Part shown: positions 13,740-14,508 of the stretch, piece after piece | How the letters are laid out: each line of letters starts with the position of its first letter | Numbering within the stretch: the stretch's first letter is position 1 | Virus record (IMG/VR): IMGVR_UViG_3300042509_001467 | Location: 1-64,000 of that record | DNA length: 64,000 bases | Strand: one strand, 5' to 3' | Origin: a virus | The notes under the pieces: generated by a model | Seen by the model: only the letters and a program-made list of their open reading frames with translations | Databases searched by the model: none | What the model was told of the DNA's origin: nothing | Program-made: the position numbers and the translations under genes

Positions 13740-13930
13740 ACCATTTTCCCGATGTCGGCAATATGGTCAAGATGTACGGAAGGTGACCGCAAAACGTCCT
13801 TCTATCGTACAATGTAGTTATTCCCCGGATCATGCTATCCTGGCGCAAGTCAGTGACCATGCCGGGGTTCTTAGTGTCGCGGCTCAATCGCCTCAGCATT
13901 TGAGGCGAATCGCGGGGTTAATCGCCTCAG
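13740..13930. other. Array of four tandem imperfect hairpins at the convergence of late (+) and early/middle (-) transcription
   Basis: Inverted repeats at 13740-13767, 13773-13811, 13823-13867 and 13878-13914; AATCGCCTCAG is duplicated. Confidence 0.6.
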
Positions 13931-14508
13931 TAAAGTTGTTTTTCCCAACGTATCTTTGGGGCTTTAGATTGTGTTTCAGCGCGAACTCTGCCGTTTACAT
14001 TCCAATCCACCATAGTAGACGCAACGTTGCATGGCGTCCACCCGCTTGCTTTATAAATTGTCCCATGGTGAGCAACGGTGTCTTGGTAACTTATGACTCG
14101 CGCTAACTCAGGGAATTTCTTTTTAATGTCACGAATCATCCACGCGATCATGTTGCTTGCCGTATTTTTTGGAGCTTCTGGTGAGATAGCCATGCGCCTA
14201 AGCTCCAGCATCAAATGACCATCCGAAAATCGGTTTGCGGCAACTGGATCAGTCCATATCGCACACGCTAAATATCGGTTTGAATATTCCGCAACGTAGC
14301 AAACCTTGCGTCGGTTCCGATCTATGTTTCCCCTCACTACGTTTGGCAATAAACTATGCCAGTGTTTGTTTAGCTGAATAGCTGTAACGACATCTATTTC
14401 ACTGTAATTAAATTGGAGCGGCGAGATCGGAATTGCACCGTCCCCTTCCGTTTGGAATAACGGATGTGCTACTGGAACACCCTCACCGCTTATGTATGGG
14501 TAACTCAT
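13927..14508 (-). CDS. mom: Mom-family (GNAT-fold) DNA adenine hypermodification enzyme
   Basis: WHSLLP, ELRRMAISPEAPKNTASNMIA, VISYQD...HHGTIYKASGW and KIRW follow the Mu Mom pattern (EL.RM...P.N..S..I; SF.D...G..Y.AS.F); adjacent to a DNA methyltransferase; start taken at MSYPY. Confidence 0.8.
   Translation of the reverse strand: MSYPYISGEGVPVAHPLFQTEGDGAIPISPLQFNYSEIDVVTAIQLNKHWHSLLPNVVRGNIDRNRRKVCYVAEYSNRYLACAIWTDPVAANRFSDGHLMLELRRMAISPEAPKNTASNMIAWMIRDIKKKFPELARVISYQDTVAHHGTIYKASGWTPCNVASTMVDWNVNGRVRAETQSKAPKIRWEKQLY
14414..14489 (-). tRNA. tRNA-Gly(UCC)-like cloverleaf embedded in the 5' coding region of the mom-like gene; atypical (non-ribosomal type)
   Basis: GCGGUGA GG GUGU UCCAGUA GCAC A UCCGU UAUUCCAA ACGGA AGGG GACGG UGCAAUU CCGAUC UCGCCGC U CCA: 76 nt, 7-bp acceptor stem, U73, encoded CCA, UCC in the loop. 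Confidence 0.8.

Follow-up and report, generated by a model that had tools for sequence, protein, structure and literature searches.

The 64,000-nucleotide stretch of viral DNA analyzed here (positions 1 to 64,000 of IMG/VR record IMGVR_UViG_3300042509_001467; hereafter the window) contains a Mom-family gene within which a 76-nt cloverleaf resembling tRNA-Gly(UCC) is also encoded. Inspection of the sequence places this element at bases 14489-14414 of the minus strand, inside the open reading frame (ORF) 13927-14508. Comparison with homologous loci shows that a tRNA-shaped RNA with an encoded CCA and the identity set of glycyl-tRNA synthetase (GlyRS) is a selected entity, and the window element belongs to a widespread family of tRNA-Gly(UCC)-derived RNAs that are physically tied to Mom-family genes. 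A tRNA-Gly-like element embedded in mom is not new as an observation. A 76-bp tRNA-Gly-like "pseudo-tRNA" was described within the initial 150 bp of a mom homologue carried by ssrA-specific genomic islands of Dehalococcoides (McMurdie et al. 2011, BMC Genomics 12:287, PMC3146451); it folds as tRNA-Gly with anticodon DCC and is also present on the deep-sea fosmid EU016565. No function was proposed, because Mom was at that time thought to act by methylation. Judged by its published description, the pseudo-tRNA matches the window element in length, in its position within the first 150 bp of a Mom-homologue coding sequence (CDS) and in an anticodon that UCC fits, but its carrier is an integrative island and not a phage genome.

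Cloverleaf in the window and selection on the RNA

The element reads GCGGUGA GG GUGU UCCAGUA GCAC A UCCGU UAUUCCAA ACGGA AGGG GACGG UGCAAUU CCG[A]UC UCGCCGC U CCA. It can be drawn as a cloverleaf with a 7-bp acceptor stem that includes G1-C72, C2-G71 and G3-C70, a discriminator U73, an encoded CCA and UCC in the anticodon loop, and each of these details agrees with an earlier note on this DNA. In frame, these nucleotides encode SGEGVPVAHPLFQTEGDGAIPISPLQ of the Mom ORF, also as claimed there. Pfam assigns the ORF to the Mom family (PF25680; 62.4 bits, cut-off 27.1, E = 6e-17), and it matches phrog_1384 (3.9e-19), annotated as "Mom-like DNA modification protein". The cloverleaf has 21 pairs, all of them standard, and U73, CCA and every GlyRS identity position are intact. 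Four features of a canonical tRNA are absent, in line with the deviations listed in the earlier note: the anticodon loop UAUUCCAA has 8 nt in place of 7, a bulged A (A63) interrupts what would be an unbroken 5-bp T stem, the D loop has AG and not the GG of G18G19, and the T loop has UGC and not the UUC of U54U55C56.

Taken by itself, the window copy is poor evidence for a tRNA-like element. Its minimum-energy fold is a long closing helix and not the cloverleaf (z = -2.05), ARAGORN called no tRNA in the 64-kb window, and RF00005 was matched neither by the element (E ≤ 10) nor anywhere in the whole 80.7-kb virus record. The sole Rfam match of the element was to Tymo_tRNA-like at 12.7 bits (E = 8.3), which is chance level. 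The tymovirus 3′ tRNA-like structure (RF00233) likewise takes a tRNA shape within a longer viral RNA and is a substrate for aminoacylation, but it is pseudoknotted and lies at the 3′ end of RNA-virus genomes, whereas the window element is a true cloverleaf inside a DNA-phage ORF. The window copy is also the most deviant member of the alignment of 56 elements described next, with G8/U14 where the family has U8/A14 and with a U5-G68 wobble.

Evidence for the element comes from homologous loci. A search of genome contigs with the single protein gave no related loci, but an alignment used as query did, and 80 viral loci and 41 loci from metagenome-assembled genomes (MAGs) were fetched around Mom homologues. 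The N-terminal "peptide" is strikingly conserved in the homologue alignment (GDxVxVxxPLFQxEGxGSIPxSPLQ). DNA was stacked from 43 codons upstream of an invariant Trp, which gave 56 distinct elements aligned without gaps over 76 columns. On the proposed cloverleaf, 90.3% of the cells in this alignment are paired versus 74.5% in shuffled alignments, with 192 compensatory cells versus 61, and none of 500 shuffles reached the observed pairing or covariation score. Controls in which the structure was slid by 1-3 columns were paired in just 38-51% of cells. Covariation supports all four helices, and double changes are present at 15 of the 21 pairs, with 27 at acceptor pair 4:69 and 35 at 5:68. RNAalifold independently finds the acceptor stem and the bulged T arm. 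The check proposed in the earlier note, to look in the 5′ regions of homologues for a covarying cloverleaf with conserved UCC/GCC, U73 and CCA, came out in favor of the element.

The covariation is superimposed on a reading frame. Pair 5:68 joins two third-codon positions and occurs as four pair types (A:U, C:G, U:A and G:C). Other compensatory changes are visible in the protein, where G4:C69 ↔ C4:G69 appears as Gly21/Pro43 ↔ Ala21/Ala43 and G49:C64 ↔ A49:U64 as Gly36/Thr41 ↔ Asp36/Ile41. Comparison of the window with locus L004, at 61% protein identity, shows a compensatory change in the anticodon stem as well (G29:C40 to A29:U40).

The bacterial GlyRS identity set comprises G1:C72, C2:G71, G3:C70, U73, C35 and C36. 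The columns that are invariant or at least 90% conserved among the elements are G1, C2, G3, C70, G71, C72, U33, U34, C35, C36, A14, the D-loop G, the T-loop A, C75 and A76, so the most conserved columns are bacterial GlyRS identity elements and universal tRNA positions. The full identity set is present in the window copy, where the earlier note had recognized part of it, and is invariant or at least 90% conserved both in the 56-element alignment and in an alignment of the sub-type with a UGC T loop.

This UGC sub-type, to which the window element belongs, was collected by a metagenome pattern scan for the UGC-type T arm (51 contigs, 35 unique elements). All are located at the 5′ end of ORFs, which continue for 181-240 amino acids where the contig allows, and nearly all have a start codon 2-6 codons upstream. 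Pairing is 92.1% versus 77.1% after shuffling, with 122 compensatory cells and double changes at 13 of the 21 pairs, and no shuffle was as high in pairing or covariation score. Across 124 unique elements, column 17 in the D loop and column 54 in the T loop covary (G/U 63, A/G 41, A/U 11, G/G 0) and the neighboring elbow pair G19:C56 is kept, which suggests from sequence that G18:U55 has been replaced by A18:G55 rather than lost. Because the two columns covary, the "missing GG" and the "UGC loop" would be one coupled elbow change and not decay; as departures from canonical tRNA both are present as the earlier note stated, but they are not independent. An 8-nt anticodon loop is found in 65 of the 124 elements, 62 of which can close to 6 bp and a 6-nt loop. 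In a further 24 the stem is re-registered to the canonical 7-nt loop without any indel, as expected since the overlapping reading frame forbids indels.

Third-codon entropy is 1.08 bits in the tRNA codons (20-45) versus 1.76 bits in the next 17 codons. AlphaFold2, supplied with a 38-sequence alignment, gave predicted local distance difference test (pLDDT) values below 50 for residues 15-30, ∼61 for residues 31-40 and ∼95 from residue 41 on. The folded domain is thereby predicted to begin near the codons overlapping the 3′ acceptor strand, and residues from ∼41 on belong to the fold. In genes that carry the element at the 5′ end, the Pfam Mom domain starts immediately downstream of it; in genes with the element at the 3′ end, the domain stops immediately upstream of it. 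The best-conserved stretch of "protein" is thus modeled as disordered, and we infer that most of the peptide encoded by the element is a disordered by-product. That residues 20-39 of the N-terminal peptide form a functional protein motif was considered and rejected in view of the low pLDDT, the constrained synonymous sites and the position outside the Pfam domain on either side.

Elements in other Mom loci

A covariance model built from the 56 homologous elements (R1) matched 71 of 100 Mom loci. Each hit is on the strand of the Mom match and located at its 5′ end, and the 64-kb window contains no second hit. Generic tRNA detection gave a divided result: ARAGORN did not call the window copy, but in ∼32 of the fetched loci it called a tRNA on the strand of the Mom match and precisely at its 5′ end. 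Seven of these calls were typed tRNA-Gly(tcc), and the others have a 6- or 8-nt loop around UCC. The Rfam tRNA gathering score was passed in 9 of 20 loci, at 29.6-44.2 bits versus 68 bits for an ordinary tRNA-Thr in locus L083. A blastn search of cultured phages with one element gave no match.

Two other RNAs were seen near such genes. The tRNA-Thr of L083 (2329-2401), from a Phycisphaerae MAG, is a canonical tRNA-Thr(CGT) 164 nt upstream of the Mom-embedded element and may point to an attachment site of a prophage or to a small cluster of tRNAs. In a viral contig (L008, 1668-1779), an Rfam Betaproteobacteria-1 small RNA (RF02932, 69.9 bits) lies ∼750 nt upstream of the Mom gene.

When viral contigs were searched RNA-first with the pattern GGTTCRAYTCCGACCTCNSCGCTCCA, 71 contigs were recovered, and in ∼65 of them the element lies within a Mom ORF. 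The proposal in the earlier note that element and enzyme travel together holds up on this count. The element is within the 5′ end of the ORF in 58 contigs, 47 of which also have a subfamily hidden Markov model (HMM) match to the Mom domain. In the other 11 the subfamily HMM matches only the tRNA-encoded peptide; all seven that were scanned are Pfam Mom (PF25680, 1e-11 to 1e-41) of other subfamilies.

Six contigs (L131, L134, L137, L158, L169 and L181) carry the element within the 3′ end of a Mu-like Mom ORF, and L173 is a likely seventh of this type, cut off by the contig end. This Mom subfamily is 36% identical to Mu Mom; the element is read in the same frame, and the stop follows 4-16 codons later. 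In all three of the ORFs scanned, a complete Pfam domain is followed by a tRNA-encoded tail (...GGSTPTSPLQ). One RNA-first contig has the element downstream of the ORF without overlap, and the remaining contigs are remnants, interrupted ORFs or truncated contigs. At L175 (26-199), a 58-codon ORF passes directly from the opening residues of a Mu-like Mom into the tRNA-encoded tail; the enzyme domain is deleted and the element intact (63 bits).

The reading frame of Mom and the element are separated in two further cases. In a Gemmataceae MAG (L099), an in-frame TGA lies inside the element and the mom ATG follows 13 nt after its end. In the cultured Psychrobacter phage vB_PmaS_Y8A (OQ059336.1), whose mom gene matches Pfam at 1.8e-55, two tandem elements start 8 nt after the stop codon, in a 165-nt gap between the Mom gene and the small terminase subunit (L246 1853-1920 and 1925-1993; OQ059336.1 ∼7786-7853 and ∼7858-7926). 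These copies are 68-69 nt long and unannotated. Neither has a D arm. The UUCC loop, UGC T loop, bulged A, U73 and encoded CCA are present in both, and a compensatory change distinguishes the two acceptor stems. Since 5′, 3′, upstream and free-standing positions all occur, the RNA is tied to the mom gene and not to the start codon.

The window gene and its surroundings

More than 600 homologues of the window Mom were found, most of them 185-200 amino acids long. The element is NEVERTHELESS translated: the start codon lies 1-11 nt 5′ of G1 in ∼50 of 59 loci and 16 nt 5′ of it in the window, is ATG in 51 of the 59 and often has Shine-Dalgarno-like purines ahead of it, and the frame is open through the element in all 59. 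As the earlier note had stated for ATG and GTG, the window ORF has no in-frame start between the element and the first GNAT elements, and there is no TTG either before the invariant WHS motif. In several homologous loci, too, no further in-frame start precedes the invariant A56, L59, N60 and W63-H64-S65. The candidate starts of the window gene are ATG 14508 and ATG 14547 only. Close homologues begin at the Met of ATG 14508, and this start is further supported because a repeated block ends 6 nt upstream of it; the 13-codon extension from ATG 14547 is, on these comparisons, probably not part of Mom. Relatives that lack the cloverleaf keep a homologous N-terminus, M(I)DLFxQERxTPxSP. A start after the element, as chosen by a gene caller (140 amino acids from TTG codon 67), was rejected, there being no start before the invariant residues named above and the homologues keeping their ATG just 5′ of G1. 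The public call of the window gene (13927-14349, P0002) is of this kind and loses both the tRNA-encoded part and the invariant WHS.

Features of the Mom locus, its tRNA-like element and the sister locus in the window. All are on the minus strand; coordinates are window positions
Feature	Position	Strand	Remarks
Mom-family GNAT CDS, 193 amino acids from ATG 14508	13927-14508	-	stop codon 13927-13929; PF25680; phrog_1384
tRNA-Gly(UCC)-like element, 76 nt	14414-14489	-	CDS nt 20-95, codons 7-32 from ATG 14508; R1 84.1 bits; helices covary
Acceptor stem, 5′ strand (G1 C2 G3 G4 U5 G6 A7)	14483-14489	-	pairs with 14418-14424; 99.5% of cells paired in 56 homologues
D arm (GUGU / UCCAGUA / GCAC)	14466-14480	-	loop without GG, A17 G18 in alignment columns; stem pairs covary; column 17 covaries with 54
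Anticodon arm, 5-bp stem and 8-nt loop UAUUCCAA	14447-14464	-	UCC at 14454-14456; U33, U34, C35, C36 invariant or ≥90%
T arm (GACGG / UGCAAUU / CCG[A]UC)	14425-14442	-	bulged A at 14427; 100% of cells paired and A63 invariant in 56 elements; 49:64 and 50:62 covary
Acceptor stem, 3′ strand, with U73 and CCA	14414-14424	-	strand 14418-14424, U73 14417, CCA 14414-14416, from sequence; U73 in 116 of 124 unique elements
Optional 13-codon upstream extension (probably not part of Mom)	14509-14547	-	ATG 14547, 1 nt after methylase stop; within 93-nt block common to sister locus; absent from closest homologues
C5 DNA-methyltransferase pieces, two frames (14549-15208, 14644-15441)	14549-15441	-	PF00145; phrog_363, phrog_1008
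HNH endonuclease ORF	15318-15845	-	phrog_2340
Sister slot: 103-amino acid ORF	52941-53252	-	weak ExoX-like_C match; replaces Mom and tRNA between paralogous flanks

The gene is flanked on one side by a 244-amino acid ORF (12999-13733, plus strand) and on the other by the C5 DNA methyltransferase, which is interrupted by the HNH ORF. A paralogue of the split methyltransferase is present as a single 242-amino acid ORF at 53254-53982. Repeat blocks relate the two regions (13008-13731 and 52105-52828, 89%; 14514-14606 and 53219-53311, 93 nt, 94.6%; 16561-17076 and 54898-55413, 99.2%). The blocks are ∼39 kb apart, which fits two related phage genomes, or a nested duplicate, in one 80.7-kb record. 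The sister locus has neither the enzyme nor the cloverleaf, as the earlier note had observed: its ORF is unrelated to Mom, and R1 has no match there. The repeated block ends 6 nt upstream of ATG 14508, which shows that enzyme and RNA move as one cassette.

Possible roles of the element

The Mom protein of Mu takes glycine from Gly-tRNA(Gly), but not from Gly-tRNA(Ala), and transfers it to adenine N6 in double-stranded DNA, the product being 6-NcmdA (Silva et al. 2026, Nat Commun, PMC13219725; bioRxiv 10.1101/2023.03.24.534169); use of this donor had been stated in the earlier note and is confirmed in print. The window protein belongs to the same Pfam family and, in an alignment to PDB 8bv8, retains Mu residues R111, S124 and D149 as R118, S131 and D156. 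Across 38 homologues R118 and D156 do not vary, and position 131 is occupied by either S or T. By homology, Gly-tRNA(Gly) would be the donor expected for the window protein. The two proteins are remotely similar, with a phmmer E value of 0.055 against 8bv8, and the window protein is the shorter. Mu R151 falls in an alignment gap and its equivalent is not conserved, although the remoteness of the alignment makes the equivalence uncertain; in this region the window subfamily has D-T-E/V-x-H, with H160 invariant. Mu encodes no tRNA and uses any host isoacceptor. Embedded tRNAs are not mentioned and McMurdie et al. 2011 is not cited by Silva et al. 2026 (PMC13219725). Papers found to use the term "momylation" yielded nothing further on an embedded tRNA-Gly-like element, and the searches made turned up no published link between such an element in mom and the Gly-tRNA chemistry of Mom.

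A working model is offered by the non-proteogenic tRNA-Gly(UCC) species of staphylococci, which are charged by GlyRS, have a UGC T loop and an altered D loop, and bind EF-Tu and the ribosome poorly (PMC7826273). As the earlier note had said of their D and T loops, the canonical motifs are lacking. They are used outside translation by the GNAT-fold transferases FmhB, FemA and FemB and are preferred by FmhB (PMC7826273). By analogy, the window element may likewise be a GlyRS-compatible UCC species, and it has the UGC T loop in common with them. The staphylococcal tRNAs differ in being encoded by separate chromosomal genes that overlap no CDS, in having no T-stem bulge, in being confined to staphylococci and in serving a peptidoglycan precursor as acceptor and not DNA. 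Evasion of EF-Tu was measured for them and is inferred for the window element by analogy, from its T-stem bulge, 8-nt anticodon loop and UGC T loop.

On balance, we lean toward a role in which excision and charging by GlyRS turn the element into a private glycyl donor for Mom that translation uses poorly. RNase P would cut the mom transcript at G1, and 3′ trimming would expose the CCA. Host GlyRS would glycylate the freed element, from which the Mom-like GNAT enzyme would take glycine as from a dedicated donor and pass it to adenine N6 in phage DNA by the chemistry of Mu Mom. The invariant bulged A of the T stem and the non-standard anticodon loop would make the RNA a poor substrate for EF-Tu and the ribosome, and the donor pool would be kept apart from translation. 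Since the AUG is 16 nt ahead of G1, a matured transcript would no longer be a usable message; any one transcript would give rise to either enzyme or donor, which would also limit the amount of enzyme. In genes of the 3′ type, maturation would remove the stop codon, and enzyme and donor would again be mutually exclusive per transcript. A dedicated glycyl donor is the simplest explanation for an RNA compatible with GlyRS, deformed where it would face the ribosome and tied to Mom in several arrangements. The full proposition, that a phage Mom enzyme and its own non-ribosomal aminoacyl-tRNA donor occupy the same nucleotides, with the mRNA as precursor of a GlyRS-charged, EF-Tu-evading tRNA-Gly, the message destroyed by maturation and the N- or C-terminal tail of the protein being translated tRNA, is plausible and is put forward more tentatively.

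Several points weigh against a donor role. Mu Mom uses all three host tRNA-Gly isoacceptors, so the chemistry needs no private donor (PMC13219725). A search for RNA sequencing runs listed none. By R1, the element is absent from 29 of 100 related loci. In a quick, midpoint-rooted maximum-likelihood tree, forms without the element are nested among tRNA-bearing ones, with at least three independent losses (eight by parsimony), and the element is therefore dispensable. Neither ARAGORN nor Rfam recognizes the window copy as a tRNA, and it has G8/U14 instead of U8/A14. Its CCA is internal and must be exposed by processing, which the T-stem bulge could hamper at the RNase P or 3′-end step, and the 8-nt anticodon loop could weaken anticodon recognition by GlyRS. 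The invariant bulge may also reflect a frozen accident, since any indel would put Mom out of frame.

The principal alternative is a tRNA mimic that acts in cis within the mRNA, where it would be bound by Mom or GlyRS, or would occlude the start, and so throttle a potentially toxic DNA modifier. Parallels exist in the operator mimicry of thrS and in the RNA structure that controls Mu mom translation via Com, and Mu mom is itself under tight translational control. The close spacing of start codon and G1, in the window as in most loci, would put a folded cloverleaf in the 30S footprint, and the element is nearly always on the mom transcript. None of the copies at the 3′ end, upstream without overlap in L099 or free after the stop in Y8A can occlude a start site, however, and a roadblock needs no strict conservation of C35, C36, U73, CCA and the elbow pairs. 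We regard this alternative as unlikely overall; of the two readings put forward in the earlier note, dedicated donor and autoregulatory tRNA mimic, the donor fits better, and it is a start-codon operator that the 3′, upstream and free-standing copies speak against.

The family could be functional and the window copy decaying, kept only as code for the N-terminus of Mom. Its place as the outlier of the alignment (G8, U14, U5-G68) and its being missed by generic tRNA detectors would fit, and relatives such as L082 have kept the ORF after the cloverleaf decayed. Decay is nonetheless improbable for a copy with 21 of 21 standard pairs and intact GlyRS identity positions, U73 and CCA, with the compensatory change at 29:40 relative to L004, and from a UGC sub-type that is under clear structural selection.

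Phages often carry tRNAs, and an ordinary decoding tRNA-Gly(UCC) that overlaps mom by chance and reads GGA and GGG codons in phage genes would be in keeping with the 24 of 124 elements that have a canonical 7-nt loop and are typed tRNA-Gly(tcc) by ARAGORN, and with those that pass the Rfam tRNA threshold. The T-stem bulge is invariant, however, the 8-nt loop is found in 65 of the 124, Rfam scores reach only 30-44 bits versus 68 for the normal tRNA in L083, the Y8A copies have no D arm, and the link to Mom is near-exclusive in the RNA-first contigs (∼65 of 71). The window phage carries no other tRNA by ARAGORN on the window and RF00005 on the 80.7-kb record, and a decoding role is accordingly very improbable. 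A chance fold, with which the modest single-sequence z-score of -2.05 would agree, or an attP or integration remnant of a host tRNA-Gly gene, as left in the many mobile elements that integrate into tRNA genes and carry tRNA fragments, is hardly credible for an element joined to the Mom gene in more than 150 contigs, and both are contradicted by the covariation counts, an att site requiring identity to the host gene and not compensatory changes in four helices.

The overlap has consequences for annotation whatever the role of the RNA. Gene callers mis-start such genes, tRNA finders mostly miss the RNA, and profile or co-evolution methods can take RNA constraint for protein constraint. To our knowledge, use of aminoacyl-tRNA outside translation is rare, and staphylococcal cell-wall synthesis is the only process for which a dedicated donor tRNA has been demonstrated. 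If the donor role is correct, the element would be the first private aminoacyl-tRNA carrier for DNA modification and would clearly exemplify how one stretch of bases can encode both a protein and a complete tRNA, the covariation extending even to the protein alignment. It would also explain the 2011 observation that was left without a function and add a missing piece to the Mom mechanism of 2026, and the free-standing copies of phage vB_PmaS_Y8A would provide a tractable system for the donor idea.

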